Made by a program: the position numbers and the translations under genes | In this document: piece after piece, positions 1 to 25,886 of the stretch | Numbering within the stretch: the first letter of the stretch is position 1 | How the letters are laid out: the number at the start of each line of letters is the position of its first letter | From: an uncultured Gammaproteobacteria bacterium | Lineage (GTDB): Bacteria > Patescibacteriota > Microgenomatia > UBA8517 | NCBI GenBank assembly: GCA_964429215.1 | Contig: CAYSAY010000001.1 | Span: 182,127 to 246,126 of the forward strand | Direction of reading: 5' to 3' | Length of the DNA stretch: 64,000 nucleotides | Notes under the pieces: model-generated | Told to the model about the DNA's origin: nothing | Seen by the model: the letters and a program-made list of their open reading frames with translations, nothing else | Database searches by the model: none

Positions 1-503
1 TTAGTTCGTCTTTTGCTGCAATCTTCCCTAATTTTCCCTCCTGTACCAATCCACAAGGAACATTGATTGCTTCTTATGATTCAGGTAACCATGGAGTAGT
101 AGGGGGAACGTCTTATTCAGGGAGTGATAAGGTTTACAAACTAGATGAGAAAAGTTTAACTCAATGTTTATGTACAGTTGATGGACAGGGTATTCAAACT
201 AATTGGTGGAAAGCATCTTCGCTTGATGAAACTCAAATTAATATTTTGAAAAATGAAGGATGGATTTATGTCCCTACAGGAAGTGTGTGGGGACTAGATC
301 AAGATTCTTATATGGCTATCAATTCTAAATATTCTTGTACTAGTTCTGATAATATTGGTGGTTCAAATATTTCTAACAATTCTACTTTGGGTCAAGTCTT
401 AGGCCTAGCTTTTACCGGCAATGCAAAATATGTTTACTCAATTATAATCTTAGGTTTTTTACTATTAATATATGGACAAATTCTTCACAGGGCTAGGAGT
501 TAG
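1..503 (+). CDS. 5'-truncated surface protein; C-terminus carries an LAFTG motif followed by a hydrophobic helix and a basic tail (sortase class E-type sorting signal)
   Basis: The frame stays open from position 1 to the ORF listed at 63. C-terminal sequence ...LGLAFTGNAKYVYSIIILGFLLLIYGQILHRARS* has the motif + TM + basic tail layout of a cell-wall sorting signal. A sortase gene follows immediately. Confidence 0.55.
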   Translation, partial: SSSFAAIFPNFPSCTNPQGTLIASYDSGNHGVVGGTSYSGSDKVYKLDEKSLTQCLCTVDGQGIQTNWWKASSLDETQINILKNEGWIYVPTGSVWGLDQDSYMAINSKYSCTSSDNIGGSNISNNSTLGQVLGLAFTGNAKYVYSIIILGFLLLIYGQILHRARS

Positions 504-1002
504 TTTAATAATTTTTGGTTCATTCCTTGTTTATCAAAGAAATAATCCTAACAGAGTTTCGTTTGCATATAGTGAAGAGGTAGCAGTAACTTCAAATATA
601 ATAAAATCTAATGTACCTTCAAGAATTTTAATTGAAAGCGTAGGTATTAATCTACCTATTGTTCAATCCGAGATAAGTGAAAATAAATGGGAAGTTACTG
701 AAAATGGTGTATCGTATTTAACGAGTTCTGTCATACCAGGTGAAATAGGAAACAGTATTATGTATGGACATAATTGGACTAATTTATTAGGTAATTTAAT
801 AAAGGTTAAAACTGGGGACAACGTAGAGATTTATTTTGAAGATGGAAGTAAAAAAATATTTAAAATTACATTGATACAGGAGGTATCTCCAGATGATGTT
901 TCTATACTTAAAGCAACTACTGACAAAAGGATAACGTTATATACGTGTTCCGGATTTCTTGATTCAAAACGATTTGTAGTAATTGGCAATTATTCGATAT
1001 AA
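472..1002 (+). CDS. Sortase family transpeptidase (class E-like)
   Basis: N-terminal signal-anchor. Conserved His in MYGHNW, catalytic TLYTCSGF Cys motif and a downstream Arg. Overlaps the end of its putative substrate gene. Confidence 0.75.
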   Translation: MDKFFTGLGVSLIIFGSFLVYQRNNPNRVSFAYSEEVAVTSNIIKSNVPSRILIESVGINLPIVQSEISENKWEVTENGVSYLTSSVIPGEIGNSIMYGHNWTNLLGNLIKVKTGDNVEIYFEDGSKKIFKITLIQEVSPDDVSILKATTDKRITLYTCSGFLDSKRFVVIGNYSI

Positions 1003-1011
1003 TATATTATT

Positions 1012-1503
1012 GTGTATCGAAAATTAATTATATTAATTGCAGTAACATTATTCCTTGGAGGTGTCATGACTTCAAAATTTGCTAATACGAAAGTGCAAAT
1101 TTCGCAAAATATTAATAATGTAATTGCCACGCCAACTCAGATTTCTACTGTTACTCCTACTTCAACAGCAGTTCCAACAACACAACCAACTAAACTAGCA
1201 AGTGCAAAGCCGACGATAATAACTCCAGTTAGTTTTATTAAAATATATTCTAATTCTAGAATTATTTCTCAAAGTGATAATTCCATTGTGTTTGAAAGTG
1301 ATGATAGTCCTGATGTGATCACTGCCTTTTACAAAAGTTTAATTGAACAAAGTGGGTCAATAGTTACATCGTTTGTAACAACAAAAACAAACGGAAATGT
1401 GCTAAATAAATTAGCAGGTGTTGTAGATAATCAGTCTATTGAAATTGAAATTAAAAGAGAGAAAACTGTATCTAAAACTTCAGTTGTAGCCTCAAGAAAA
1501 TGA
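1012..1503 (+). CDS. Hypothetical secreted/membrane-anchored Thr/Pro-rich protein
   Basis: GTG start gives an N-terminal TM helix followed by a T/P-rich low-complexity region. The start is uncertain: an ATG with a GGAGG Shine-Dalgarno sequence lies at 1066. Confidence 0.4.
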   Translation: MYRKLIILIAVTLFLGGVMTSKFANTKVQISQNINNVIATPTQISTVTPTSTAVPTTQPTKLASAKPTIITPVSFIKIYSNSRIISQSDNSIVFESDDSPDVITAFYKSLIEQSGSIVTSFVTTKTNGNVLNKLAGVVDNQSIEIEIKREKTVSKTSVVASRK

Positions 1504-1582
1504 TATTGACAAGTAATTTTATAAAGCATAGAATTTATTCTATTGAATTGTATTTGATAGAAATTAATAGTAATTTATTTGA

Positions 1583-2212
1583 ATGAATGGACTCGGTCAA
1601 ATGGTAAGTAAGCTTTTGAGATTCATCTCCAATCTTTTACGGCTTCTTTTTAAAGGAATTTTACAAAAAAAGAATTTGCCATTTATTTTAATTTTAATAG
1701 TGATTTCTTGTGTAATATATTTTTTTACAAATGGTGTTGGTAATTTACTAAGTAGTCAAAATAGTAAGTCAGGACAAATACAAGTTGCTCCTGCAAAAGC
1801 TACAACTTCTATAAATAAAGAATTTACTTTTCCATTAAAGAATGAAAAAGGATTAGAAGTAAGTAAAGTAAAATATATTATTGAATCAGCTGAACTTCGA
1901 AATGAAATTGTTGTTAAAGGACAAAAGGCTAGGTCTGTAAAGGGAAGAACATTTTTAATATTTAATTTAAAAGTTGTAAATGATTTTAAACAGAAAATTG
2001 AAATTCAAACATCTGATTACTTGAGACTTTCAGTTAACGGAAATAAAGATGCTTGGTTGGCTCCAGATATACACAGTGATCCAGTTGCGATTCAAGCTAT
2101 TTCTACAAAATACATAAAAGTTGGATTTGCCATTAATGAAAGTGATAAAGATTTATTACTAAAAGTAGGTGAAATAAATGGAGAAAAACAAGATGTCGAA
2201 GTTAAATTTTAA
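1583..2212 (+). CDS. Hypothetical membrane-anchored protein
   Basis: Long ORF with an N-terminal TM segment; no family recognised. Confidence 0.45.
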   Translation: MNGLGQMVSKLLRFISNLLRLLFKGILQKKNLPFILILIVISCVIYFFTNGVGNLLSSQNSKSGQIQVAPAKATTSINKEFTFPLKNEKGLEVSKVKYIIESAELRNEIVVKGQKARSVKGRTFLIFNLKVVNDFKQKIEIQTSDYLRLSVNGNKDAWLAPDIHSDPVAIQAISTKYIKVGFAINESDKDLLLKVGEINGEKQDVEVKF

Positions 2213-2213
2213 A

Positions 2214-2387
2214 ATGAAAAATTATTCAACACAAATACTATCACCAATTTTATTGGAAGATGTTAAAGAGGCAATTAAAAGTATTACTGATTATGGTAGT
2301 GTAGAAATATATATTCAAGGGGGAGTAGTCAGCCAAATTAGTACGAGAAAAATTAAGAAAACTGATCAAAAATTGAAGATGGTATAA
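2214..2387 (+). CDS. Small hypothetical protein (58 aa)
   Basis: ORF begins at the ATG immediately after the upstream stop; no recognisable family. Confidence 0.25.
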   Translation: MKNYSTQILSPILLEDVKEAIKSITDYGSVEIYIQGGVVSQISTRKIKKTDQKLKMV

Positions 2388-2397
2388 ATTATGGGAC

Positions 2398-2426
2398 TTG
2401 ACAACTTAAATAACAGTAAATATATT
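2398..2426 (+). promoter_or_regulatory. Sigma70-like promoter (TTGACA-N17-TATATT) for the 2595 surface-protein gene
   Basis: Perfect -35 hexamer and near-consensus -10 with 17-nt spacing, about 170 nt upstream of the ATG. Confidence 0.45.
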
Positions 2427-2445
2427 GTGATTAAGTAGAATAATA

Positions 2446-2513
2446 GCTGACCGCAAACGGAGGCTTTTTTCACTCAGAGAAATCTGGGGGAAAGAAGCCT
2501 CTGTTTTCGTTTT
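2446..2513 (+). promoter_or_regulatory. Conserved 5'-leader element (GCTGACCGCAA[A/C]CGGAGGC ... hairpin ... U-rich tract), candidate attenuator or cis-regulatory RNA
   Basis: The 19-nt core recurs in inverted orientation at 8384-8402, upstream of the paralogous minus-strand gene. GGAGGC at 2459-2464 pairs with GCCTC at 2497-2501 and is followed by TGTTTTCGTTTT. Both leaders end with GGGGGTGA before the ATG. Confidence 0.4.
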
Positions 2514-2594
2514 ATAAGGAAATAGGGTGAAGTGCCTCTTAGATCTCATCTAATAAATGAGAGGAGGAAAATAGATTGGGGGTGAATATATATA

Positions 2595-3830
2595 ATGAAC
2601 AAATTTAAAAAAGTAGTAGCCTCTGCAATAGCTGCAGGATCCCTTTTAGTCAATGGATTCATGCCAGTTTTTGCTCAAACAACAATAGTACTTTCAGGAA
2701 ATGGAACAAATTCAGATAACACTGCAAATGTTTCAGTTACTCAAAGCACAGTTGTTACTCAAAGCAATAATGCAGATGTTACAAATAAAGTATATGCCGA
2801 TTCCAAAACAGGAGATAACAAAGCAGAAGATAATACAGGTGGAGACGTATCAGTTAAAACTGGTGACTCAGATGTAACTGTTGATGTTAAAAACACACTT
2901 AATAATAATTCTGCAAACGTTGACTGTTGTGGAGCAACAAATACTGATGTACTTATTTCAGGAAATGGATCAAATAGTGATAATGATGTAAATCTTACTT
3001 TAGGTGGAGATAAAAATACCTTAGTAACACAAAACAACAATGCTGATGTATACAATCACGTTGATGTGGATTCAGATACAGGCGATAACGATGCAGAAGA
3101 CAACACAGGTGGAGATGTGTCAGTCGAGACCGGTGATGCAACTGTAAACGTAAACGTAAATACAACTGCTAATGCAAATTCTGCCAGAGTTGGTGGGAAT
3201 GGAGAAGCAGGTTCTTTATCAGCAAAAATCCTAGGAAATGGTACATCTAGTGATAACGAAATCGATTTAGACTTTGGTGGTTCACTTTGGATAACTCAAG
3301 ATAATGAGGCTGATGTGGATAACAAAGTTGATGTTGATGCCGAAACTGGAGATAACAATGCAGAAGATAACACAGGTGGAGAAGTATCAGTCAATACTGG
3401 AGACGCCGATGTTACCGTTGACGTAGAAAACGATGTCAACTTCAATTGGGCAGACGCTGACTGCGGATGCTTATTGAATGATGTGTTGGCAAAGATCGAT
3501 GGTAATGGTAGCGATACAGATAACGATATCACTGCAAATCTTGGACAAACACTTGGTGTAATTCAAGATAATAGTGCAGGTGGAGAAGGAGAATTGGAAA
3601 ATACTGTCTATGCTGATGCAGAAACTGGAGAAAATGATGCTGAAGATAACACTGGTGACCCTGGTGCTGATCCATCAATTGAAACCGGAGATGCAACAAC
3701 AGAGGTAGCGCTTGATAATTCAGGCAATTCCAATGTTTATGGTCAAACACCAGATTGGGAATTCCCAGGTACTGGATTTGATTTCCACTTTTCGTTCGAT
3801 TTGAGCGATTTGTTGGACTGGTTAAGTTAA
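2595..3830 (+). CDS. Secreted repeat protein, paralog family A (NG..S.N...TGDN.AEDNTGGDVSV.TGDA modules with CC motifs)
   Basis: Signal peptide MNKFKKVVASAIAAGSLLVNGFMPVFAQ; at least four internal repeats; paralogous to 3935, 6129 and 7707(-). Confidence 0.6.
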   Translation: MNKFKKVVASAIAAGSLLVNGFMPVFAQTTIVLSGNGTNSDNTANVSVTQSTVVTQSNNADVTNKVYADSKTGDNKAEDNTGGDVSVKTGDSDVTVDVKNTLNNNSANVDCCGATNTDVLISGNGSNSDNDVNLTLGGDKNTLVTQNNNADVYNHVDVDSDTGDNDAEDNTGGDVSVETGDATVNVNVNTTANANSARVGGNGEAGSLSAKILGNGTSSDNEIDLDFGGSLWITQDNEADVDNKVDVDAETGDNNAEDNTGGEVSVNTGDADVTVDVENDVNFNWADADCGCLLNDVLAKIDGNGSDTDNDITANLGQTLGVIQDNSAGGEGELENTVYADAETGENDAEDNTGDPGADPSIETGDATTEVALDNSGNSNVYGQTPDWEFPGTGFDFHFSFDLSDLLDWLS

Positions 3831-3848
3831 TTATGTAATTTTTTGGAA

Positions 3849-3885
3849 CTAGAGTTGCTTACTTACACTTCAGTAAGCACTCTAG
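3849..3885. terminator. Intergenic hairpin (about 14-bp stem with one bulge) between surface-protein genes
   Basis: CTAGAGTTGCTTACT..AGTAAGCACTCTAG inverted repeat. No U-tract, so terminator function is uncertain. Confidence 0.3.
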
Positions 3886-3934
3886 AATCCAAGAGATAAA
3901 GAAGTAAAAAGATAGAAAAGATATAAAAATAAAA

Positions 3935-6136
3935 ATGATTAATAGAATTAAAAAAATACTTTCAGTAATTACTGTTATTGCTTTGCTGTTTACAAATACA
4001 GGGTTAGTTTTTGCTCAATCAATTCCTACTCCTCCTCCGGCACCAACAATGCCATATGTTCCAACTGCACCACCAGCACCAACAATGCCACCTGTTCCAA
4101 CTGCACCACCAGCGCCAACAATTGCACCAACTAATGCTCCTACTCCGCCACCTGTTCCAACTGCACCACCAGCGCCAACAATTGCACCTACAATAACACC
4201 AACTCCTGTCCAAACTAGTGTACCTATTATAGAGCCGATTTTACAACCAACTGCCACTCCTTTAGTTTTGTCACAATTTGTTGATACTGAGAATTTAGGT
4301 GGACAAGAAGCAGATGGTGGAACTGGCTCAAACTCTATTAATACTGGGAATGCTACAAATGATGGATTAATTGTAAATGATTTAAATAGTAATTTGTCTG
4401 CTGTTCTTAGTGACGGAACAGGAAATGGAAGTGCTGAAATTACTAACACTGGAAATGGTGCTGGGTCAACAAATTCTGGATCAGCAGTTGTTGTAAATAA
4501 TACAAATACTGATCAATCTAATTTGGTAGTACTTGAAAATGGGTTGTACCAAAGCGCTGTGACTGGAGATAATTCAGCAAGTAAGAATACTGGAGGCGAC
4601 TCAGCTATTACTACTGGAGATGCTAATGTGACTGGTACGATATTAAACTCAGTTAATACTAATGTAGCAGGTGTTTTGGTTTCTGAGTTTAATGTTATGA
4701 ATGATACTACGGGAGATATAATTCTTGATTTTGTAAATAATTGCATAACTAATTGTGGAACACCTTCAAATACTACTATTAAAAATTCAGGTAATGGTGC
4801 TGATTCTACAAACACTGGATCATTAGATGTAGTAAATAACAATTCAACTAATCAATTAAATGATGCAGTCATTGCAAATGAAATGGATTTGTTTGCAAAT
4901 TCTGGTAATAACGTAGCAGATAAAAATACTGGTGGCGATTCAACAATTGTGACAGGAGATGCTAATGTTGCAGCAAACTTATTGACGTTTGCTAATAATA
5001 ACATTGCAGGTAATGTTATCTATTCTGTTGTTAATATTTTTGGAGATTTGATAGGCGATATTATATTACCTGAAGAATTACTTGCAGGATGTTGCGGAAC
5101 AAATCCTGTAACTCTAGCTAATTTAAATAATGGTGCAGATTCTAATAATGTAACTAACTATTCAAATGAAATAACAGATTCTTTAACACAAATTAATAAT
5201 TTAGAGATTGAAAATAATTTAATCTTTGACGCTGCAACTGGACAAAATGATACTTATGCAAATACAGGTGGAGATTCATCAATTATAACAGGGGATACAA
5301 GTGTGAATGCTAAAGTATTAAATGTTGCAAACAATAATATAAGTGGTGAAAATATGTGGCTTGTAATAGTTAACCAAGCCGGTAGATGGATAGGGAAAAT
5401 ATTAGGTACTGCGGACGGTACAAATATTGCTGGAAGTGAAGGCTTTGAATTTGAAGTAGATGAAAATGGAGGAGTAACAGTTGCAAATGCTGGAAACGGT
5501 GCAGGATCAACCAATACTGCAACCTACAATGAAACAAATAATAATGATACAACCCAAGTTAATAATGCAAAAATTGTTAATAATTTGGATTTGGCTGCAA
5601 ATACAGGGGGTAATTCTGCATCAAAAAATACAAACGGAGATTCGTCTGTGACTACGGGTGATGCTAATATCATCGCTAATATAGTCAATTTTGTTAACAA
5701 CAATATAACAGGAAGTGGAAAATTAGTTGTAACAGTTGTTAATGTGTTTGGTAGTTGGTTGGGTGATTTTGTAGGACCTGGATTTACAAAAGAAGTTCAA
5801 TCGAATGAATCGCCAAGTAATACGGCTATTGGTGGTAGTGATATGCATGTCAATACTAATAGTCAAACTGATAATAACGAGAAAACTAGTGGTTCAAGTA
5901 ACTCAGTAGTTGGTAATAATTCAGTTGTCAAATTAGTTTCACCTGTAGCTTTTATACCAAAGACTAAAGTTCTAGGAGCTAAAATTAGTGTAGTAGACGG
6001 TAATCAGTTGGCAAATAATACAGAAATTGACTCCGATAAAAAGAAAGTTATTAATATAAATTTCGCTTGGGTATTAGCTGCACTTTTCCCAATAGGTATC
6101 GTATCAATTATTTTACGAAGAAGATCACATGCTTAA
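3935..6136 (+). CDS. Large (733 aa) cell-surface repeat protein with a Pro/Thr-rich linker and a C-terminal TM anchor; paralog family A
   Basis: Signal peptide, then PPAPTMP.VPTAPPAPT tandem repeats, then family-A modules (NTGNGAGSTN...TGDNSASKNTGGDS..TGDANV) and CCG motifs. C-terminal TM plus RRRSHA tail. Confidence 0.65.
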   Translation: MINRIKKILSVITVIALLFTNTGLVFAQSIPTPPPAPTMPYVPTAPPAPTMPPVPTAPPAPTIAPTNAPTPPPVPTAPPAPTIAPTITPTPVQTSVPIIEPILQPTATPLVLSQFVDTENLGGQEADGGTGSNSINTGNATNDGLIVNDLNSNLSAVLSDGTGNGSAEITNTGNGAGSTNSGSAVVVNNTNTDQSNLVVLENGLYQSAVTGDNSASKNTGGDSAITTGDANVTGTILNSVNTNVAGVLVSEFNVMNDTTGDIILDFVNNCITNCGTPSNTTIKNSGNGADSTNTGSLDVVNNNSTNQLNDAVIANEMDLFANSGNNVADKNTGGDSTIVTGDANVAANLLTFANNNIAGNVIYSVVNIFGDLIGDIILPEELLAGCCGTNPVTLANLNNGADSNNVTNYSNEITDSLTQINNLEIENNLIFDAATGQNDTYANTGGDSSIITGDTSVNAKVLNVANNNISGENMWLVIVNQAGRWIGKILGTADGTNIAGSEGFEFEVDENGGVTVANAGNGAGSTNTATYNETNNNDTTQVNNAKIVNNLDLAANTGGNSASKNTNGDSSVTTGDANIIANIVNFVNNNITGSGKLVVTVVNVFGSWLGDFVGPGFTKEVQSNESPSNTAIGGSDMHVNTNSQTDNNEKTSGSSNSVVGNNSVVKLVSPVAFIPKTKVLGAKISVVDGNQLANNTEIDSDKKKVININFAWVLAALFPIGIVSIILRRRSHA
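4020..4200 (+). repeat. In-frame tandem DNA repeat (about 45 nt unit) encoding the P/T-rich linker
   Basis: Repeated gttccaactgcaccaccagcNccaacaatNcc units visible directly in the sequence. Confidence 0.6.
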
Positions 6137-7160
6137 ACGATTATTCATTTTAACACTGCTCCCTGCTGTGTTTTTATTTTATGTTGGTCCATTTATTCCA
6201 TACGTTGTAGCTCAGGAATTAATTATTTCAGGAAACGGAAGTAGCTCTACTAGTGAAGTTTTAGTAAACACAAATAATACAGAAAGTATTAGCCAATCAA
6301 ATACGGCAAATATTGTAAATAACATTGAAGTAATTGCAAATACTGGTAATAATAATGCAAGTGATAATACTTCAGGAAGTGTAACTATTTCAACTGGTGA
6401 TGTCTTAACTGATTTGGTTGTTAGTAATAATATTAACAGTGCTACTGTTAATAATTCTTGTTGCGATGTAGAAAATAATTCTTCAGTCTCTATAGTTGGA
6501 AATGGTAGTGGATCTGATAATAGTGTCGTTTTAAATATAAATGATGAAAATTCCATTGTTGTGAATCAGTATGCAAATATAGAAAATAAAGTAATTGGAA
6601 CTGCAAATACAGGAAATAATAGTGCAAATAACAATACAAGTAGTGAAGTGACAATTCTTACAGGAGATATTAAAGTTAATATCAAAATTAATAATTACCC
6701 AGTCAATACTTCTTTGGTTAATTTTGGTAATAGTCCGTTAAGTGTATTTGCCAACATTTCTGATAATGGTGCAAACACAACAAATTACGTATCAGCAAAT
6801 ATCAATAAACCTAAATTTGTTGGTGTTAATAATTACTTTGTTGCTAATAATATTTCTTACTGGGATTTAAAAACAGGTGGAAATACTGCTAGTGGTAATA
6901 CTTCGAGCAAAGTATTAATTAAAACTGGGAATGTGTTTTTTGATTTACTAATTTCAAATGCAGCTAATATAGGTGGAGTTGATTTAGGTTGTTGTGGTGT
7001 TGATCCAGATGATCTGGATGATCCCAATGATCCTGATGACCCAAGTGACCCAGGTGGTTATATAGGTGGCGGAGGTGGGAATGGGGGGTCTACTCTTGGA
7101 AGTTCAATTAATTTTAATGGTCCTGCAATATTAGGTTTGTCTGCAACGTCGTCAAAATAA
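6129..7160 (+). CDS. Secreted repeat protein, paralog family A, with a Gly-rich and PDDP-rich C-terminus
   Basis: Signal peptide; ISGNGSSSTSEV...NTGNNNASDNTSGSVTISTGDV and CCDVEN/CCGVDP motifs. Start overlaps the upstream gene end, suggesting an operon. Confidence 0.6.
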   Translation: MLKRLFILTLLPAVFLFYVGPFIPYVVAQELIISGNGSSSTSEVLVNTNNTESISQSNTANIVNNIEVIANTGNNNASDNTSGSVTISTGDVLTDLVVSNNINSATVNNSCCDVENNSSVSIVGNGSGSDNSVVLNINDENSIVVNQYANIENKVIGTANTGNNSANNNTSSEVTILTGDIKVNIKINNYPVNTSLVNFGNSPLSVFANISDNGANTTNYVSANINKPKFVGVNNYFVANNISYWDLKTGGNTASGNTSSKVLIKTGNVFFDLLISNAANIGGVDLGCCGVDPDDLDDPNDPDDPSDPGGYIGGGGGNGGSTLGSSINFNGPAILGLSATSSK

Positions 7161-7179
7161 GCAAAGCTTGTAATAAATT

Positions 7180-7674
7180 ATGAAAAAAAATTTGATGATA
7201 CTGTTTATAGGTTTTTTATTAGGATTTATATTTTCAAGAATTGAATCACCTGTCATAGTTCATTCAAATGAAGTGCTGATGTATAACGAACTTCCTACAA
7301 GAATATTAATTCCTTCTGTATCTATTGATACTTCAGTCAAAAAGGCATTAATTATAAATGGATATTGGCAAGTTTTTCCTAATTCAGCTGCTTGGGGCGA
7401 TCAATCTGGCATTCCTGGAAATATTGGAAATCAAGTAATATTTGCTCACAAAAGAAGTGGATTGTTTGCAAACCTGAAAGACGTAAAAATTGGAGATAAA
7501 ATTTATGTTTTAACAAGTAAGGGATCATTCGCTTATGAAGCTCGAGAAATAAAAGAGATAAACCCAAATGAAATTGATGTTGTTAAGCCAACAACAGACG
7601 AGACATTAACTTTATACACATGTTCTGGATTTGCCGATACGAAAAGATTAATAGTAGTTGGTAAGAAGGTATGA
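7180..7674 (+). CDS. Sortase family transpeptidase (second copy)
   Basis: Signal-anchor; FAHKRSG His region; TLYTCSGF catalytic motif identical to the first sortase. Confidence 0.75.
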   Translation: MKKNLMILFIGFLLGFIFSRIESPVIVHSNEVLMYNELPTRILIPSVSIDTSVKKALIINGYWQVFPNSAAWGDQSGIPGNIGNQVIFAHKRSGLFANLKDVKIGDKIYVLTSKGSFAYEAREIKEINPNEIDVVKPTTDETLTLYTCSGFADTKRLIVVGKKV

Positions 7675-7708
7675 GAACCCCTTGGTACAATCAAGGGGTT
7701 TCTCTTTT
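7675..7708. terminator. Bidirectional rho-independent terminator between convergent genes
   Basis: GAACCCCTTG-gtacaat-CAAGGGGTT followed by TCTCTTTT. Confidence 0.6.
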
Positions 7709-8306
7709 AAAGACTATTGTTACCACTAGTAACAGTTAGTCCTGATGTTGTCAGACTGTTTCCAGTAGAAACTTCGACAGTACCATTTGTGTTTTTGTTT
7801 GCTTTATTTTTACCTGTTTTTGCCTTAGATTTAACTTTTGCATTTACTACGGTTGATGTTCCTTGAGTAGTGGCATTAGTTTTTAAATCTGTTACTAAGA
7901 CAGAATTATTACTATTGGCACCATTATTTGATATTGTTGATAGTGCTTCAGGATTTAGTTCTGTATTGCAGCAACAAGGATCTGAAATAGTATTGTTTCC
8001 TCCAGTTACTGAAACTGTAGATGTTGCAGTTGCATTACCTGTGTCAATTGTTACATCTCCACCGGTATTGCTGTTTGCTTTATTTCCTCCTGTTGTAGCA
8101 TTTGATTTTACAATTGCATTTACCTGGGTTACATTCCCTTGTGTAATTGTGCAATTATTTGAGTTCGTCAATACAATTGTATTTGTAGAGCTTGCTCCAT
8201 TATTTGTAATAGTTGAGTTCTGTGCAAATACTGATGTAAATGTTGAACCTAAAATTAAAGCGCTAGATATCACGCCTGTTGCTAATTTGTAGACAAATTT
8301 GTTCAT
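7707..8306 (-). CDS. Secreted repeat protein, paralog family A (inverted copy)
   Basis: Signal peptide MNKFVYKLATGVISSALILGSTFTSVFAQ; NTGGDVTIDTGNA modules; CCCNTE motif. Its leader shares the conserved element with the 2595 gene. Confidence 0.6.
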   Translation of the reverse strand: MNKFVYKLATGVISSALILGSTFTSVFAQNSTITNNGASSTNTIVLTNSNNCTITQGNVTQVNAIVKSNATTGGNKANSNTGGDVTIDTGNATATSTVSVTGGNNTISDPCCCNTELNPEALSTISNNGANSNNSVLVTDLKTNATTQGTSTVVNAKVKSKAKTGKNKANKNTNGTVEVSTGNSLTTSGLTVTSGNNSL

Positions 8307-8383
8307 TTTTAATCACCCCCTTTCTTGGAGAGTGATTTTTCACTCGATTGAAGTAATAAAAAACATTAGTTATGTTCATAATT

Positions 8384-8452
8384 GCCTCCGGTTGCGGTCA
8401 GCAAATAACTTAATATCAATAATAATAGCAATATTGGTTGTTTATGTGTCAA
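8384..8452 (-). promoter_or_regulatory. Paralogous promoter and leader element of the 7707-8306(-) gene, inverted copy of 2398-2464
   Basis: The reverse complement contains TTGACA (8447-8452) and GCTGACCGCAACCGGAGGC (8384-8402), then GAGTGAAAAATCACTC and GGGGGTGA before the ATG. Confidence 0.4.
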
Positions 8453-8515
8453 CTGTATCTTTGTGGTATTAAAACCACCCTTTATATATAAATGTAAAGT
8501 TGTTATTATGAATGG

Positions 8516-9424
8516 ATGGATAAACTGCTACACCTATTAATTCCTCGTGAGAGTAATAATCACAAGGCTAAAATATTACATCCTAATAGTTTGTTGATTG
8601 TCACTATGTTGTTTTTGTTTTTTCAGGTATTTGTTAGCAATTTACCTAAGTTAAAGCCTGACATTTTAGGATATGCTGCAAATATAGCGCCAGATGAAGT
8701 TGTAAGGTTAACTAATCAAAAGAGACAAGAAGCAGGCTTATCTTTATTAACTTATAATTCTGATTTAGCCGGTGCTGCTTATACCAAAGGTGTTGATATG
8801 ATTACAAAAGATTATTGGGCACATGTGGCTCCTGATGGAACTCAACCTTGGAAGTTTTTTAATGATTTCGGATATAAATATAAATATGCAGGCGAAAATT
8901 TAGCAAGAGACTTTACAAATCCTAGTTCTGCAGTTGATGCATGGATGAACTCGCCTACTCACAGGGAAAATATTTTAAATCCTAAATATAAAGAAATTGG
9001 TATTGGTGTAGTTGAAGGAGATTTGGCAGGAACTGACACTACAATTATTGTTCAATTTTTTGGATCTACATATTCAGATAAAGTAGTACTACCAGTAGCA
9101 CAGGCAGCACAAACAGAGAAAAAAGTGATTGCCACCGAAGCTCCAAAAATAGTTGCTACACCACTTGCTGTTGAAGTAAGAGCGCCTGAGGTTAACACCA
9201 TTGTAACTACGGAGTCACAACAGGTTTTGATTTCGCCATTTAGTACTACTAAAAATGTGTCATTAATTGTGGTTGGAATATTACTTTTGATATTTGTTAT
9301 TGATGCAGTCCTTGTGTCTAAGAGAAGGATTACAAGGGTTGCAGGACGAACATTTTCACATGTTGCCTTTTTAGGTATGATTGTTGTAATTGTATTAATA
9401 TTAAAGTCGGGAGAAATATTATGA
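8516..9424 (+). CDS. CAP/SCP (PR-1-like) domain protein with N- and C-terminal TM segments
   Basis: DYWAHVAPDG...GENLA...HRENILNPKYKEIGIGV is typical of the CAP superfamily. Hydrophobic segments at both ends. Confidence 0.65.
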   Translation: MDKLLHLLIPRESNNHKAKILHPNSLLIVTMLFLFFQVFVSNLPKLKPDILGYAANIAPDEVVRLTNQKRQEAGLSLLTYNSDLAGAAYTKGVDMITKDYWAHVAPDGTQPWKFFNDFGYKYKYAGENLARDFTNPSSAVDAWMNSPTHRENILNPKYKEIGIGVVEGDLAGTDTTIIVQFFGSTYSDKVVLPVAQAAQTEKKVIATEAPKIVATPLAVEVRAPEVNTIVTTESQQVLISPFSTTKNVSLIVVGILLLIFVIDAVLVSKRRITRVAGRTFSHVAFLGMIVVIVLILKSGEIL

Positions 9425-13860: not shown

Positions 13861-14634
13861 ATGCAGACAATTATCCTTTGTGGAGGCACAGGAACCAGAA
13901 TGAAAGAAGAAACTGAGTTCCGTCCAAAACCTATGGTTGAAGTTGGTGGACAGCCAATTTTGTGGCACATTATGCAGACTTATATGCATTATGGGTATAA
14001 AGATTTTATTATAGCCTTAGGTTATAAAGGTGATATGATTCGTGAGTTTTTCCTCAATTGGAGAACAAATGCAAACGATTTCACTATTGATATGAAATCT
14101 GGTGAAAAAGTTGTATTAACAGATAGACAAAAAGACTTTAAGGTTACTTTAGTGGATACTGGCCTTGAATCGTTAACCGGTGCTCGAATTAGAAGATGTG
14201 CACCTTATATTAAGGGTGAGGAATTCATGTTAACTTATGGAGATGGAGTGTCTGATATAAATATCACTGAGGTCGTAGATTTTCATCATAAACAAAAAAC
14301 ATTAGCTACACTTTCCGGAGTTCATCCAAAGTCAAGATATGGTCTTGTGGAGCTTGATAAAGAGTCTGGAATTGTTACTAAATTTAGTCAACAACCAGTA
14401 TTACATGAATATATTAGTGGAGGGTTTATGGTTTTTGATAAAAAGGCAATTGAATTTTTTACTGACGATGAAATGGAAGTAGGACTAACTCATATGGCAG
14501 AAGATAAACAAGTTTCTATGTATACTCATGAAGGATTTTGGAAAGCAGTTGATACTTATAAGGAACTAGAACAATTAAATGATCTTTGGAATGATGGCAG
14601 ACCTTGGGCAGTTTGGGAGAAAAAACAAAAATGA
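13861..14634 (+). CDS. rfbF: Glucose-1-phosphate cytidylyltransferase
   Basis: MQTIILCGGTGTRMKEETEFRPKPMVEVGGQPILWHIM matches the RfbF/DdhA N-terminus. Confidence 0.85.
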   Translation: MQTIILCGGTGTRMKEETEFRPKPMVEVGGQPILWHIMQTYMHYGYKDFIIALGYKGDMIREFFLNWRTNANDFTIDMKSGEKVVLTDRQKDFKVTLVDTGLESLTGARIRRCAPYIKGEEFMLTYGDGVSDINITEVVDFHHKQKTLATLSGVHPKSRYGLVELDKESGIVTKFSQQPVLHEYISGGFMVFDKKAIEFFTDDEMEVGLTHMAEDKQVSMYTHEGFWKAVDTYKELEQLNDLWNDGRPWAVWEKKQK

Positions 14635-15695
14635 GTGACCTAGAAAAATTCTTCAAAGGTAAAAAAGTATTGATAACGGGGCATACTGGTTTTAAAGGTG
14701 CATGGCTTACTAAAATACTTTTGATGTGGGGTGCAAAAGTTTCTGCAATTTCACTTGATCCACATACAACCCCAAATCTTTTTGAGGTTTTAGAGCTTGA
14801 AAAAGATATTAACCATCATTTGGTTGATGTAACTGATTATGAAAAAGTAAAAGAAGTTTTTGATAAAGAAAATCCAGAAATAGTATTTCATTTAGCTGCT
14901 CAGGCTATTGTAAAAGTTAGTTATGATGACCCGCTTCGTACGTATCATGTAAATACAATGGGTAGTGCTAATGTGCTTCAAGCTATTAATACCACGAAAT
15001 CTGTAAAATCTGCAGTTATGATTACATCTGATAAAGCTTATGAAAATCGTGAGTGGGTTTATCCTTATAGAGAAACAGATAGACTTGGTGGAATTGATCC
15101 ATATAGTGCCAGTAAGGCTGCAGCTGACATAATAGACCAATCTTTTATCGCATGTTTTATGAATAAGGAAGATAGCGCACTTGTTGCAATCGCTCGTGCT
15201 GGTAATGTGGTTGGAGGAGGAGATTGGTCTCCAAATAGACTTATCCCTGATGTAGTACGTGCAATTTATGAAGATAATAAACCTGTAGTTACAAGAAACC
15301 CACAGGCGATTCGTCCATGGCAGTTTGTTTTGGAACCATTGTCTGGATATTTATTGTTAGCTAAGTTGTTATTTGAAGGAAATAAAGCGTTTGTGAGTCA
15401 ATGGAATTTTGGACCAAATGATGAAAATTTTATTCCAGTAATTGAACTTATTAAAAGAGGAATTACAATTCTTGATAAAGGGAATTACGAAGTTGACGAG
15501 AATAGTAATTTTCACGAATCAAGATTTTTAAAGTTAGATATATCAAAAGCAAAAACAGATTTAAATTGGCATCCAAAGCTTGGAATTAAAGAAACCCTTG
15601 AGTTTGCATATAATTGGTACAAAAATTATTATGAGAAAATAGAGTCCCCTGTTAAATATACTGAGGAGCAAATAAAGGATTATTTTAGTCGTTAA
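14631..15695 (+). CDS. rfbG: CDP-glucose 4,6-dehydratase
   Basis: KKVLITGHTGFKGAWL Rossmann motif and the overall RfbG layout. ATGA overlap with rfbF. Confidence 0.8.
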   Translation: MSDLEKFFKGKKVLITGHTGFKGAWLTKILLMWGAKVSAISLDPHTTPNLFEVLELEKDINHHLVDVTDYEKVKEVFDKENPEIVFHLAAQAIVKVSYDDPLRTYHVNTMGSANVLQAINTTKSVKSAVMITSDKAYENREWVYPYRETDRLGGIDPYSASKAAADIIDQSFIACFMNKEDSALVAIARAGNVVGGGDWSPNRLIPDVVRAIYEDNKPVVTRNPQAIRPWQFVLEPLSGYLLLAKLLFEGNKAFVSQWNFGPNDENFIPVIELIKRGITILDKGNYEVDENSNFHESRFLKLDISKAKTDLNWHPKLGIKETLEFAYNWYKNYYEKIESPVKYTEEQIKDYFSR

Positions 15696-15698
15696 ATT

Positions 15699-16229
15699 AT
15701 GATTTTTACACCGACCGAAATTGATGGAGCGTTTTTAGTTGAACTTCAACCAAGAATTGATGACAGAGGTTATTTTACACGTAGTTTTGCCCAAGAAGAA
15801 TTTGATAGTGCAAAAGTTAATTTTAAAATGGTTCAGACAAATCAGGCTTTTACTAAAGCCAAGGGGGTACTTCGAGGGATGCATTGGCAAACAGAACCAA
15901 AATTGGAAGCTAAATTTTTTCAATGTTTACAGGGTGAAATATTTGATGTAATTTGCGATGTGCGAGTGAGCTCACCTACTTATGGAAAGTGGGCAGGATT
16001 TAATCTTAAATCTGACGAGTTTAAATTATTGTTCATCCCAGGGGGATTAGCCCACGGATATGAAACTTTGACTAAAAATTGTAAAGTTCAATATATGGTT
16101 GGAGAGTTTTATTCTCCTGAATTTGAAAAAGGTTTTAGGTGGAACGATCCTACATTTAATATAAAATGGCCAATTGAGCCAACATTTATGTCAGATAAAG
16201 ACAAGGCATTACCAGATTATCAAAAATGA
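15699..16229 (+). CDS. NDP-4-keto-6-deoxyhexose 3,5-epimerase (RmlC-like cupin)
   Basis: TEIDGAFLVELQPRIDDRGYFTRSF...GVLRGMHWQ is an RmlC-family signature. Confidence 0.75.
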   Translation: MIFTPTEIDGAFLVELQPRIDDRGYFTRSFAQEEFDSAKVNFKMVQTNQAFTKAKGVLRGMHWQTEPKLEAKFFQCLQGEIFDVICDVRVSSPTYGKWAGFNLKSDEFKLLFIPGGLAHGYETLTKNCKVQYMVGEFYSPEFEKGFRWNDPTFNIKWPIEPTFMSDKDKALPDYQK

Positions 16230-17068
16230 AAATACTTATATTAGGTTCTCAAGGCACACTCGGACAAGTATTGCTATCTGAATTTAATAACAACGGAAAT
16301 GAAACTGTTGGGTGGGATAGAGAAGACGTGGATATCACGACAGTTGAAGTAGAGTCCAAAATAATAGAATTAAAGCCAGATGTTATTTTAAATGCAACTG
16401 CTTATAATGCAGTTGACCCAATGCAGATTGATGAGGAAGCCAGAAAAGTTGGTTTTTTGATGAATGCTGAAGTTCCTGGTAAGTTAGCTAAAATTGCAAA
16501 GGAAATTGATGCGACTTTTGTTCATTATTCAACTGATTACGTCTTTGATGGAAAAAAAGAAGAAGGTTACAACGAAGAAGATACTCCAAATCCTATTTCT
16601 GTTTATGGTGAATCTAAATATGAAGGTGAAAAAAATGTCCAAAAGTTTGGAGAAAAGTACTATATTATTAGGCTTTGCAGATTGTTTGGGGAAAAAGGAA
16701 TTAGTGCTGCTAGTAAACGAAGTTTTGTAGAAATAATGCGAGGAGAAATTGAAAAAGAAGAATTAATGGTAAAAGATGAGGAAATCGCTTGTCCTACTTA
16801 TGCACCTGACGCGGCTAAATTTACAAAAGAACTTATAGAATCTAACTCACCTTGGGGAATTTATCATGGAACAAATTCTGGAAGTTGTACTTGGTATGGT
16901 TGGGCTGAAGAAATCTTTAAAAATTTAGGTAAAAGTCCTAAAATGATAAAAGGTTGTGCAAAAGATTATCATAATCCTGCACCTCATCCTCAATATTCAG
17001 TATTATTAAATACAAAAAGGCCTCTTCAAAGAAGTTGGCAGGAAGCTCTTTCTGAATTTTTAAATTAA
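16226..17068 (+). CDS. NDP-4-keto-6-deoxyhexose reductase (RmlD-like, NAD(P)-binding)
   Basis: MKILILGSQGTLGQ glycine-rich motif; YxxxK-containing SDR-like fold; position immediately after the epimerase. Confidence 0.65.
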   Translation: MKILILGSQGTLGQVLLSEFNNNGNETVGWDREDVDITTVEVESKIIELKPDVILNATAYNAVDPMQIDEEARKVGFLMNAEVPGKLAKIAKEIDATFVHYSTDYVFDGKKEEGYNEEDTPNPISVYGESKYEGEKNVQKFGEKYYIIRLCRLFGEKGISAASKRSFVEIMRGEIEKEELMVKDEEIACPTYAPDAAKFTKELIESNSPWGIYHGTNSGSCTWYGWAEEIFKNLGKSPKMIKGCAKDYHNPAPHPQYSVLLNTKRPLQRSWQEALSEFLN

Positions 17069-17070
17069 TT

Positions 17071-17613
17071 ATGGCTACTTTGATTACTGACGGTTTTGAT
17101 GAAGGCGATGATTTAAAAGTAGTTTCTATTCTAAATAAGTGGAAGGGTGGAATTTTATCTGATCAACTTTTTACTTCAATTTCTAAAATGACTCCTCAGC
17201 TTGCTTGTATAATTGTTGTTTTTCGTAAAAAAGGGGAACTATTAGAAACACTACTATTGCCAAGACCAGAAGGAGATCCTGTTTGGTCAGGAATGCTAAA
17301 TCTTCCCGGTAAAATGTTTAGAGCAATGGATTTTAAGAGGGAGGACAAAAATCCGGTAAATGGTCCACTTGAACGAATTCAAAAAGGTGAATTAAAAGTT
17401 GAATTGAATAAACTTGACATAAAATTTGCCGGTCTTGCTTTTCAGGATACAATTCGGGGTCCAATAATGGTTTTGGTGCATACATATTTTGTAGCAAATG
17501 ATTTTAAAGGAAATGAAGATTGGACATGGAGAGAAGTATCCCAACTTAAAGATTCAAAAGATATGATTCCAACAGAGATGGATGCAATTGAAGTCGCATT
17601 AAAATCTATTTAG
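17071..17613 (+). CDS. Hypothetical protein
   Basis: ORF with native codon usage; family unknown. Confidence 0.4.
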   Translation: MATLITDGFDEGDDLKVVSILNKWKGGILSDQLFTSISKMTPQLACIIVVFRKKGELLETLLLPRPEGDPVWSGMLNLPGKMFRAMDFKREDKNPVNGPLERIQKGELKVELNKLDIKFAGLAFQDTIRGPIMVLVHTYFVANDFKGNEDWTWREVSQLKDSKDMIPTEMDAIEVALKSI

Positions 17614-18559
17614 CTTCTTTAAACCACTTACCTTCTTTGTAGCCAGTTGAATTCCAAAAAAAGTCCGCGGGACTTACTTTTTTATAAAGCCAATCTGGAG
17701 CTCTATGATAACAAAGTTTACCAAATTGATACCCTAACCAGCCCATTGCAAGTTGTAGGAAAGCTGTTGGAAACATTAACGGTTCGTTTTTTAAAACATG
17801 AGTTAAAAGTGCAATTGCATATGAAGTTCCTCTCTTTTGGTCGCCTCCTCCGCCTAAATCTAAAATTCTATCCCACTGTTTTCTATACATTCCTGTATCA
17901 AAATGTCTGACAAATTCTTTTTGTGGTGTGTAGTTATGTGAATGATTAACTATTGATTCTGATACATATGCAATCTTGTGACCTTTGCGTAGAATCATTG
18001 CTGCAGCAACAGCATCTTCGCCTGATAATATCCATCTAAAGCCTCCAATTTCGTCCAGTGCTTTGTTTGACCATGCTGTACATGCGTCAGAGCAAAAACC
18101 AGTGTATCTTCCATATTTCGGAGCATCTTTGATGCTTCTGATATTACTTTTATCTGGAAAATTAAATTCTCTACCAAATCTTGCAATAATATTAGCGCCG
18201 TCGTGAGCAACTTGTTTTGCATAGGAAATTTTTGCTTTGCCTTCAACAATTGGTTGAATTAATTTTTCAAGCATATCTGGTTTTGCATATGCATCGGGTG
18301 TCATCATGACTACAATGTCGGTACCTAAAGTTTTTCTTGAAATTTCTCTTGCATAACCATGGTTCATTTCAATACGAGGAATTACTAATGTTTCTACACC
18401 TAATTTTTTAGCCAATTCTACACAACCATCGTTTGAAGTTGAGTTAAATACAAGTATTTTTGCTTTTATCGTTGATTTTACAATTAGAGGTAAACTAATT
18501 TTTAATTTTTCAATATCTTTGTATGTAATTATGGCAACCCCGACAGTCAACTTTTTCAT
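17606..18559 (-). CDS. Glycosyltransferase family 2
   Basis: N-terminal LTVGVAIITYKD GT-A signature and DGC/DD motifs. Confidence 0.65.
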   Translation of the reverse strand: MKKLTVGVAIITYKDIEKLKISLPLIVKSTIKAKILVFNSTSNDGCVELAKKLGVETLVIPRIEMNHGYAREISRKTLGTDIVVMMTPDAYAKPDMLEKLIQPIVEGKAKISYAKQVAHDGANIIARFGREFNFPDKSNIRSIKDAPKYGRYTGFCSDACTAWSNKALDEIGGFRWILSGEDAVAAAMILRKGHKIAYVSESIVNHSHNYTPQKEFVRHFDTGMYRKQWDRILDLGGGGDQKRGTSYAIALLTHVLKNEPLMFPTAFLQLAMGWLGYQFGKLCYHRAPDWLYKKVSPADFFWNSTGYKEGKWFKEAK

Positions 18560-18610
18560 TGTAAATTTATTATACACGACTTTTAAAAAATGTAATTGAG
18601 GCTAAACGTG

Positions 18611-18619
18611 TGATATAAT
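18611..18619 (+). promoter_or_regulatory. Extended -10 promoter element TGaTATAAT upstream of the 18634 gene
   Basis: Perfect TGnTATAAT 14 nt before the ATG, implying a very short leader. Confidence 0.4.
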
Positions 18620-18633
18620 ACGTTCTAAACATT

Positions 18634-19269
18634 ATGCTGGAAATAAGAAAACAATCTACTTTAGAAGAAAGAATAAATAACGCAATGCACGAAATTGTAG
18701 TAGATGGTAAATATCCTCGTGCTGTTAGATCGCAGAGGTTGATTGAGCTAGGTATTTCAACAAATGATGAACAAGCTGAATTTTGTAAGAAATTGATAAG
18801 TGATTCAGAAAATAAATATGGAAGAGTTTTGATTGTTTATCGTAATCAAAATGAAAAATCTAGTTCTGTTCGTTGGTTTGCTAGGGGTAAGGACAATGAA
18901 TTAGGTGAAACATTTGTTGCTCCGCATATTGAACCAAAAGAAAGTGTAATCGAGGTTTTTGAATTGGTAAAAGGAAAAGCAGTTTTAGCTATTTATGAAA
19001 ATGATGACAAAGATTCTCCAATTAAATTTATTGATTTAGTTCCGGGTTGTCCTCAAATAATATTGCCTGGGCAAATCCATACAGTATTGTGTGAATCTGA
19101 TTTTGTAGAAGTGGTAGAGTTTAAAGTTGTAAGTGATGCTAAAATAAATCCTGATTTTGCACTTCGATTAGGTTTAGTAGATGAAAAACATGTTGAACAA
19201 AGTGGTCCACAGATTGATGAATATCTTAAAACAATGCACCTTAACGCTGATATTGCACTTGCTAGATAA
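18634..19269 (+). CDS. Hypothetical protein
   Basis: ORF with native codon usage; family unknown. Confidence 0.4.
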   Translation: MLEIRKQSTLEERINNAMHEIVVDGKYPRAVRSQRLIELGISTNDEQAEFCKKLISDSENKYGRVLIVYRNQNEKSSSVRWFARGKDNELGETFVAPHIEPKESVIEVFELVKGKAVLAIYENDDKDSPIKFIDLVPGCPQIILPGQIHTVLCESDFVEVVEFKVVSDAKINPDFALRLGLVDEKHVEQSGPQIDEYLKTMHLNADIALAR

Positions 19270-19416
19270 TAATCTTTTTAATTATATTTATGCTTCAGGG
19301 ATATAATTCGTGATGAACCTTTAGTTCTTGGGATTACTATTTTTTTATTAGTGATTATATTAACATCAATTCTCAATTTTTTAATCAGTGTGTTATATAG
19401 ATGTTATAATAAATTA

Positions 19417-19833
19417 ATGAAACTTGATGCAATCCTTCAAACAAGAAGTAAAAAAGATGACATTTCTGTTTGTTTTATATCTCGTGATAATAAAATACTA
19501 ATTGGATTAAGAAATTATAAAGCTAATGAGTGGAAAGATGTTTCAGTTTGGACAGTTCCTGGTGGTCACTGTGAGGATGGTGAAACATTTGAAGAAACGC
19601 TGCGAAGAGAGGCCTTTGAAGAATGTGGAATATCTAATTTAACTATTACGGAATATATGGGTGTTGTTCCTGGAGCAAAAGAAGGAGATACTGTGTATGT
19701 TTTTAAAGCTGAAACTAATGAAGAGCCAAAACTCATGGAACCTGAAAATTTTAGTGAATGGAAGTGGTGTGCGATTTCAGATATTCCATCCAATTTTATA
19801 AATCCTGCTGCACTTAAACTAATAACGCATTAA
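19417..19833 (+). CDS. NUDIX hydrolase
   Basis: Nudix box GGHCEDGETFEETLRREAFEECGI. The ATG at 19417 is preferred over the 19351 start; the start remains uncertain. Confidence 0.7.
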   Translation: MKLDAILQTRSKKDDISVCFISRDNKILIGLRNYKANEWKDVSVWTVPGGHCEDGETFEETLRREAFEECGISNLTITEYMGVVPGAKEGDTVYVFKAETNEEPKLMEPENFSEWKWCAISDIPSNFINPAALKLITH

Positions 19834-19873
19834 CTTGTTGTTGTATTAATAATTTTAATGTATTATTGTCGTA

Positions 19874-22593: not shown

Positions 22594-22594
22594 A

Positions 22595-23233: not shown

Positions 23234-23277
23234 TAGTATGTATATTTTAGCAGATTAAAGTGGTAAAGTTTATTTAT

Positions 23278-24396: not shown

Positions 24397-24397
24397 A

Positions 24398-24628: not shown

Positions 24629-24707
24629 TGCATATTATTAGTCTTAGTTTTGTTGTTTTGCCCACGTTTACTAATTATCTAATTACCTATTTAGCTAATT
24701 AACTAGT

Positions 24708-25838: not shown

Positions 25839-25886
25839 AGTATTGATAATACCATATTGAGGCTACAATATGTTAGACTTATTCGT

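Follow-up and report, generated by a model that had tools for sequence, protein, structure and literature searches.

What does a 19-nt sequence do that stands, almost unchanged and in opposite orientations, upstream of two paralogous genes for secreted proteins? The question arises in a stretch of 64,000 nucleotides, called the window here, which is low in GC and whose proteins match those of Candidatus Levybacteria and other Microgenomates (CPR/Patescibacteria). The secreted and surface proteins of CPR bacteria are thought to mediate host attachment, and, to our knowledge, very little is known about how these bacteria regulate their genes. Our analysis was computational throughout, and the sequences compared share descent, so that the counts given below do not represent independent events.

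The core of the element, GCTGACCGCAA[A/C]CGGAGGC, occurs at 2446-2464 (+) and 8384-8402 (-), with no further copy in the 64-kb window. Of the 19 positions, 18 agree between the two copies. Matches expected by chance numbered 0.00 in shuffles with 3 mismatches permitted, and a covariance model of the core, run over the 64 kb, scored 42 bits at copy 1, 34 bits at copy 2, and 8.7 bits at the runner-up. Copy 1 lies 5' of an operon encoding secreted repeat proteins (411, 733, and 343 aa) and a sortase, and copy 2 lies 5' of the gene for a 199-aa paralog on the opposite strand. The repeat proteins matched no family in Pfam or NCBIfam. The leader of the 411-aa gene, together with the small gene that precedes it, is made up as follows.

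2214-2387 (+): DUF2292-like small ORF of 57 aa (Pfam PF10055); gene callers also use a start at 2178
2398-2426 (+): sigma-70-like promoter of the 411-aa gene leader, with TTGACA at 2398-2403, a 17-nt spacer, and TATATT at 2421-2426 (11 of 12 positions)
2446-2464 (+): core copy 1, GCUGACCGCAAACGGAGGC, a small hairpin; putative antiterminator and factor-binding site
2455-2506 (+): long terminator-like hairpin (-32.6 kcal/mol, z -7.1) whose 5' arm starts within the core
2503-2516 (+): U-tract (GUUUUCGUUUUAUA) that completes an intrinsic-terminator-like signal
2529-2567 (+): downstream leader module, GAAGUGC plus a variable hairpin, kept in core-less orthologous leaders too
2578-2597 (+): ribosome-binding site GGGGGUGA and ATG of the 411-aa secreted repeat protein (gene 2595-3830)

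Two sortase genes, at 472-1002 (+) and 7180-7674 (+), flank the cluster. A 146-aa protein encoded at 63-503 (+) carries a C-terminal sortase sorting signal (LAFTG, a hydrophobic stretch, and HRARS), and the 733-aa protein (3935-6136, +) ends in a hydrophobic stretch and RRRSHA; the 411-aa and 199-aa proteins have no such C-terminal anchor. Between the convergent sortase and 199-aa genes, a strong hairpin followed by a T-tract at 7675-7701 (+) suggests that the organism uses intrinsic terminators. Farther downstream, a large envelope-glycan cluster (13861-29860) comprises RmlA/B/C/D-like dTDP-rhamnose genes, at least six family-2 glycosyltransferases, and two PMT-type mannosyltransferase-like proteins.

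The distribution of the core was surveyed from two directions. A protein-first sample of 80 loci, each from a different GTDB species, was drawn from an alignment of homologs of the 199-aa protein and is unbiased with respect to the motif. In these loci, the core model gave 46 matches at E <= 0.0024. Every match has the strand of the gene, and for 45 of them a gene of the 411-aa/199-aa (p411/p199) family begins no more than about 420 nt downstream. A nearly invariant core stands upstream of orthologous genes in 45 of 80 loci, which come from different Microgenomates species. The downstream proteins are 35 to 50% identical to those of the window, and the commonest core variant is that of window copy 1. 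The core was present at 37 of 48 genes of the 411-aa type and at 7 of 30 genes of the 199-aa type. The taxonomy of the loci was taken from record titles, part of which are seemingly mislabeled; the titles include Levy-, Woese-, Davies-, Ames-, Chisholm-, Gottesman-, and Woykebacteria. Many GTDB MAG records that contain these loci, which are typical of CPR, bear the title "uncultured Gammaproteobacteria" or "Nanoarchaeia archaeon" (for example, L012, L014, L016-L020, and L039), labels that look wrong.

A motif-first scan of metagenome contigs, for which the exact core pattern was required, yielded at least 120 loci. Among the matches listed, about 100 were CPR-type, low-GC copies, and about 20 exact matches in GC-rich coding DNA were set aside as chance. 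A GC-rich coding repeat in L131, GCTGACCGCA[A/G]CCGGAGGC, occurs five times in two runs with 303-nt spacing (reverse-complement coordinates 430, 733, 1036, 5450, and 5753) and appears unrelated to the CPR element. The genes 3' of the listed CPR-type copies nearly all encode signal-peptide proteins, among them relatives of the 411-aa and 199-aa proteins, small secreted repeat proteins, a subtilisin-like protease, and TasA/camelysin-like proteins; one listed copy precedes a UDP-sugar-dehydrogenase-like gene, and several metagenome contigs carry two or three copies. Since the downstream genes are nearly all of the signal-peptide class, the core marks a regulon of cell-envelope and secreted proteins.

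This leader element is absent from Rfam and from the literature searched. At the gathering threshold, Rfam release 15 gave no match in the window and none in 20 homologous loci, and at E <= 10 the sole match at the site was a chance hairpin (mir-290, 19 bits versus a threshold of 51). The core sequence had no occurrence in the searched literature, which also held nothing relevant on CPR leader or RNA motifs or on Microgenomates sortase and surface proteins. We know of no convincing resemblance of the core to rRNA, SRP RNA, tmRNA, or the T-box.

With two inverted copies, identical at all but one position, flanking the 5.9-kb sortase/surface-protein block, the core might be a duplication remnant or a substrate for inversion of that block, and the first-pass annotation had proposed both, next to a regulatory role. 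Simple duplication of the 5' regions is rejected: apart from the core and the -35 box, the sequences 5' of the two genes align no better than background, leaving just 19 nt in common, and these 19 nt recur in the genomes of distant genera. Inversion found no support either. Five independent assemblies of the species to which the window belongs carry the 199-aa gene and show one junction only, that of the window: the 50 to 200 nt that precede the core match the copy-2 side at 100% identity and the copy-1 side at about 30%. The block also has the window's orientation in four further loci (L007, L008, L011, and L077), which come from different MAGs. No recombinase domain was detected in the ten ORFs scanned (472-9424), so that neither of the two marks of an invertible segment, occurrence in both orientations and a nearby recombinase, was seen. 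Moreover, an exchange at the cores would merely swap two promoters. We regard both the remnant and the inversion substrate as scarcely credible.

The core was also considered as RNA. In isolation it folds as (((..(((....))).))) at -5.5 kcal/mol; in copy 1, the outer pairs G1-C19, C2-G18, and U3-G17 are followed by an internal loop (G4 A5/A16), the inner pairs C6-G15, C7-G14, and G8-C13, and the loop CAAA. Across 41 distinct sequences, 98.4% of cells in this hairpin are paired. The outer helix covaries, pair 1:19 occurring as G:C, A:U, or G:U (and as U:A in two further loci) and pair 3:17 as U:G, C:G, or U:A. The inner stem CCG/CGG and the internal loop A5/A16 never vary, and because of this invariance the inner stem lends no covariation support.

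Promoter boxes similar to those of the window lie 5' of the core in many orthologous loci, at a distance that varies from 44 to 68 nt between the -35 box and the core, so that the core is not itself a promoter element. A sigma-70-like promoter was found 5' of the core in 33 of 91 long leaders. Loci without one often have a direct repeat, CTGCCC-N13/14-CTGCCC(A/G)AAT, which lies at most 100 nt upstream of the core in L020, L029, L030, L092, L098, L103, and L109 and may be another type of promoter or a regulator site.

The second predicted structure shares bases with the first. In the long form of the leader, the 3' half of the core (AAACGGAGGC) generally serves as the 5' arm of a 20- to 28-bp hairpin whose 3' arm, GCCUCCGUUU, is followed by a U-tract; in copy 1, AAACGGAGGC pairs with GCCUCUGUUU, and UUUUCGUUUU follows. 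The consensus of 30 such hairpins contains 22 pairs, 13 of which show compensatory changes. The proportion of paired cells is 95.1%, versus 77.6% in shuffles; double-change cells number 123, versus 27.6 in shuffles; and the covariation score is 0.55, versus 0.20 in shuffles and at most 0.18 in slid controls. At its base the stem does not vary, since this part is the core itself. A U-tract lies 3' of the hairpin in all 34 long-form leaders that were folded.

This overlap is systematic. In 122 of the 134 CPR-type instances with enough sequence, the 3' part of the core doubles as the 5' arm of the terminator (4 to 10 nt common), the overlap being at least 7 nt in 99 instances and 4 to 6 nt in 23. 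No terminator was found in the remaining 12, two of which (L095 and L155) resemble, on reading, very short terminators overlooked by the scan. In 90 of 91 long leaders, no promoter was found between the terminator and the ribosome-binding site (the exception having one), so that the 411-aa gene can be expressed only by reading through the terminator. The leader thus has a G+C-rich stem-loop with an immediate U-tract between promoter and start codon, as well as an alternative structure that shares bases with this stem-loop and is mutually exclusive with it, as expected of an attenuator. Judged from the sequences, its anatomy is that of a predicted antiterminator overlapping a predicted intrinsic terminator.

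Two further elements lie past the hairpin. The GAAGUGC module just 5' of the ribosome-binding site, immediately followed by a hairpin that is variable but compensating, is present in nearly all 411-aa-type leaders, including those without core, terminator, and DUF2292; besides the window (2529-2567, +), it was seen in L031, L045, L053, L059, L065, L076, and L078. In core-less leaders it stands 7 to 9 nt 3' of a TAAGAT-like -10 box, and it may represent a transcript 5' end, a processing site, or a stabilizer. In many long leaders (seen in L057, L060, L072, L073, L079, and L084), the 3' half of the core recurs (AAAACGGAG) directly after the U-tract, and this repeat can pair with the 3' arm of the terminator and the U-tract, giving a third alternative structure. 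A simple switch between two structures leaves this conserved repeat unexplained.

If the core hairpin is bound by a factor, the neighboring genes offer a candidate. The ORF at 2214-2387 scores 25.7 bits against PF10055, above the cutoff of 22, and so belongs to this Pfam family; its homologs are annotated as "DUF2292 domain-containing protein." An HMM built from these homologs found a DUF2292 ORF 5' of the core, on the same strand, in 106 of 129 evaluable instances, with 8 to 295 nt (median, 82) between the end of the ORF and the core, and the adjacency extends to motif-first matches whose downstream genes are unrelated to the 411-aa family. Core and DUF2292 occur together at 37 of the protein-first loci of the 411-aa type and are both missing from the other 11, with no locus having one without the other; given the adjacency, a single deletion or shared descent could yield this co-occurrence. 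The loci without core and DUF2292 keep the rest of the leader (GAAGUGC, hairpin, and ribosome-binding site), and the DUF2292 gene, core, and terminator therefore behave as one optional cassette.

The DUF2292 protein has a basic C terminus and a highly conserved GSVEIYVQ..VTQIT.R.IKKT motif, and its AF2 model (pLDDT 84) consists of one helix, a beta-hairpin, and a basic tail. Comparison of the model with PDB structures returned no significant relative, PDB sequences yielded repeat artifacts only, and a tblastn search of plasmids with the DUF2292 consensus gave no match. The nearest named family is OscA of NCBIfam, a weak match far below the cutoff; OscA has been linked to sulfur starvation. The searched literature held nothing on the function of the DUF2292 family under the names DUF2292, YezD, or OscA, and we know of no nucleic-acid-binding activity for it. 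Loci with a variant core beginning ACCGACC (L037, L039, L052, L069, and L071) encode DUF2292 proteins with altered conserved motifs (EIYIESGRVVQITERTIKK or YFEAG..TQ.TQRIINK, versus EIYVQ..VTQITVRNIKK in other loci), which may reflect covariation of specificity or phylogeny only. In the window, a single nucleotide separates the DUF2292 start from the stop codon of the 1583-2212 gene (UAAAAUG, 2210-2216, +), an arrangement that suggests translational coupling of the membrane-anchored protein encoded at 1583-2212 with the DUF2292 protein.

The closeness of the element to the DUF2292 ORF (at a median of 82 nt and a minimum of 8 nt past its end) also fits a different role, in which core and hairpin form the terminator of the upstream g1583-DUF2292 operon, or else an independent small RNA of about 70 to 80 nt, whose expected anatomy of promoter, 5' single-stranded stretch, and terminator is found here. 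However, the near-complete lack of promoters between the terminator and the 411-aa gene (90 of 91 leaders) makes that gene dependent on read-through, and copy 2 and other short forms have neither a terminator nor an upstream co-directional gene. As for a small-RNA seed, complements of the 5' stretch of the core occur in the window at chance level (5 found versus 5.4 expected). Both versions of this explanation strike us as very unlikely.

Copy 2 represents the short form, whose features in the window are the following.

8422-8452 (-): promoter of the 199-aa gene, read from the sequence, with TTGACA at 8452-8447 and an extended -10 element, TGCTATTAT, at 8430-8422
8384-8402 (-): core copy 2, GCUGACCGCAACCGGAGGC, a hairpin lengthened by flanking U-A pairs, without an overlapping terminator
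8263-8379 (-): upstream ORF of 38 codons, served by the core's GGAGG as Shine-Dalgarno sequence (5-nt spacer) and overlapping the 199-aa gene at its start
8311-8337 (-): hairpin in which AAUCACUCUCC pairs with the ribosome-binding site GGGGGUGAUU (centroid structure; 199-aa gene, 7707-8306)

The 19-nt spacer of this promoter caused it to be missed by a simple promoter scan. The flanking U-A pairs bring the hairpin of copy 2 to -8.4 kcal/mol. An AUG lies 3 to 7 nt past the GGAGG of the core in 8 of 15 terminator-less instances (window copy 2 and 7 of 14 others), versus 8.7% expected (binomial p ~1e-5, for instances that are not fully independent), and in several other short-form loci the stop codon of the upstream ORF coincides with or adjoins the main start codon. 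The peptides of the upstream ORFs, compared across the terminator-less instances, show no conservation. The folding model predicts that the ribosome-binding site of the 199-aa gene can be sequestered by the AAUCACUCUCC hairpin. Since about 12 instances, window copy 2 included, have no terminator, the core must serve a function beyond antitermination.

The two copies together allow the earlier description of the locus to be revised. The first-pass annotation had located the 19-nt core where we find it, and its scores against shuffles and over the window bear this out; the TTGACA box reported before both copies is likewise there (2398-2403 and 8452-8447), as is the attenuator-like pairing of GGAGGC with GCCTC ahead of a U-tract in copy 1. 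The other features said to be common to the copies fall away. The TCACTC hairpins are not homologous, being part of a freely varying, compensating distal terminator stem in copy 1 and of an anti-Shine-Dalgarno structure in copy 2; the GGGGGTGA ribosome-binding region is the strong ribosome-binding site of every gene in the family and not a specific common feature; and the spacing, said to be similar, is not, with 130 nt between core end and ATG in copy 1 versus 77 nt in copy 2. Of the interpretations offered then, the comparative data support a leader RNA that regulates in cis and has a terminator resembling an attenuator, or else the site of a dedicated regulator, and duplication and inversion drop out as described above. 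Searching related genomes for the core and for covariation had been set beforehand as the test: the core recurs upstream of orthologs, and the hairpins covary. The evidence for a regulatory leader lies in its occurrence in many genera, its strand specificity, its overlap with a covarying terminator, and the linked gene for a small candidate regulator.

The role of GGAGG as a Shine-Dalgarno sequence in the short form also invites a reading in which nothing is switched, the element being a constitutive 5' mRNA stabilizer or ribosome-binding element of the STAB-SD kind for surface-protein mRNAs expressed at very high levels, with GGAGG binding the 30S subunit and the hairpins stopping 5' exonucleases. 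A perfect GGAGG near the 5' end of a long leader, ahead of genes with strong promoters and ribosome-binding sites, is in keeping with this. STAB-SD and the structured 5' leaders of S-layer and crystal-protein mRNAs share with the element a Shine-Dalgarno-like GGAGG that stands far upstream of the start, in a long leader, on the mRNA of an abundant surface protein. STAB-SD has no invariant non-Shine-Dalgarno half, U-tract terminator, or DUF2292 linkage. A stabilizer would explain neither the invariance of GCUGACCGC, nor the constant U-tract after a stable hairpin, nor the linkage to DUF2292, and in the long form GGAGG is buried in a -32 kcal/mol stem. We consider this reading decidedly unlikely.

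The core could instead be a DNA operator at which a transcription factor, possibly DUF2292, binds the inverted repeat CCG-N4-CGG and represses or activates transcription, the terminator-like hairpin being a separate element. Operators typically lie where the core does, 10 to 30 nt past the predicted start, an inverted repeat is present within it, a small basic protein is encoded adjacent to it, and changes that preserve a palindrome can mimic covariation. Yet a DNA site has no reason to require overlap with a terminator stem, which begins within the core in 122 of 134 instances. The asymmetry of the repeat (GA on one side and A on the other) is invariant, the commonest 3:17 pair is U:G, which pairs on the sense strand only, the distance from core to promoter varies, and the core of the short form provides the Shine-Dalgarno sequence of an upstream ORF. 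An operator is thus unlikely, in our judgment, and we return to a leader RNA.

By analogy, the element works most like the protein-dependent antiterminators of the RAT/CAT (BglG, SacY, and LicT) and ANTAR systems, although the defining features of neither are present. Like the core, the RAT is a short conserved imperfect hairpin with an internal loop, located in a 5' leader and sharing its 3' part with the 5' arm of an intrinsic terminator; being weak, it needs a protein to stabilize it, and the regulator gene often adjoins the target. It differs in length and loops (about 29 nt with two internal loops, versus 19 nt with one 2x1 internal loop here) and is not known to resemble the core in sequence. 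The targets also differ, being sugar-utilization genes for RAT/CAT and secreted surface proteins here, and the candidate partner is a 57-aa DUF2292 protein with another predicted fold; no CAT/PRD antiterminator domain was found in the ten ORFs scanned (472-9424). The target RNAs of the ANTAR regulators (EutV, AmiR, and NasR) consist of two tandem hairpins with hexanucleotide loops (PMC3369931). The resemblance lies in protein-dependent antitermination via a small hairpin that overlaps a terminator, and the difference is that here a single hairpin with a 4-nt loop is found.

The short form is also reminiscent of leader-peptide attenuation of erm and cat genes: an upstream ORF stands beside a structured element and reaches a main-gene ribosome-binding site that is sequestrable in a hairpin. 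It departs from these systems in that the peptides are not conserved, and we know of no stalling signal for the short-form upstream ORF.

Antitermination could also be processive. An ops/RfaH-like or LoaP-like signal would be read by a NusG paralog, as non-template DNA or nascent RNA, to send a terminator-resistant polymerase along the surface-protein operon. The element shares with the leaders of these systems a short, invariant, orientation-dependent signal ahead of operons for cell-surface or secreted components; its variable distance from the promoter and the large envelope-glycan cluster in the window would also suit such a signal. The ops element is 12 nt long and is read as non-template DNA, with no need to overlap a terminator. 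It differs from the core in sequence and architecture, and it is absent here: the 12-nt GGCGGTAGnnTG does not occur in 2398-2597 or 8306-8452, and GGCGGTAG is missing from the leader. Moreover, the conserved 19 nt exceed the exposed part of a transcription bubble, and because its overlap with the terminator that comes next is obligatory, a switch of local structure is indicated rather than processive modification. No NusG-like domain was found by Pfam in 30 ORFs (472-29860). We consider a processive signal of this type very unlikely.

The account that we favor, and consider somewhat probable, is factor-dependent attenuation and antitermination of transcription in a cell-surface regulon, with DUF2292 as the candidate factor and translation as the step affected in the short form. 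The core would form the conserved center of an RNA in the 5' leader through which Microgenomates control their genes for secreted and cell-surface proteins. In the long form, transcription would start about 10 to 20 nt upstream of the core, and by default the stable hairpin and U-tract would cause premature termination, on the assumption that CPR RNA polymerase responds to such a signal. The core hairpin needs help to win, since its folding energy is -5.5 kcal/mol versus -32.6 kcal/mol for the terminator. Because the stem and internal loop (not the loop itself) are invariant and the element is strand specific, recognition by a conserved macromolecule is suggested, and this, with an antiterminator too weak on its own, favors antitermination that depends on a factor. 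A trans-acting factor would stabilize the core hairpin and block the terminator, permitting read-through into the operon of the 411-aa gene, and the best candidate would be the small basic DUF2292 protein encoded immediately upstream. In the short form, a lone hairpin beside the upstream ORF would contain its Shine-Dalgarno sequence, and binding would act on translation, not on termination. More tentatively, we can imagine that DUF2292 is a new class of small RNA-binding antiterminator that recognizes the 19-nt hairpin and forms with it a Microgenomates-wide switch of the whole secreted and cell-surface (host-contact) regulon of these episymbiotic bacteria, by way of termination where the leader is long and of upstream-ORF translation where it is short; we see this as a possibility that is rather less probable than not.

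That 19 nt remain almost invariant upstream of proteins that are 35 to 50% identical indicates a strongly selected control point for surface genes. The alignment of this leader motif, which Rfam lacks, is ready for use as a covariance model, and the core and DUF2292 form a concrete RNA-protein pair that can be tested, giving a Pfam family without a known role its first candidate function. For the biology of these ultra-small bacteria, the finding means that genes for secreted surface proteins across a whole class of the CPR are preceded by a leader that is most likely an on/off switch of transcription, in which a small neighboring protein possibly takes part.
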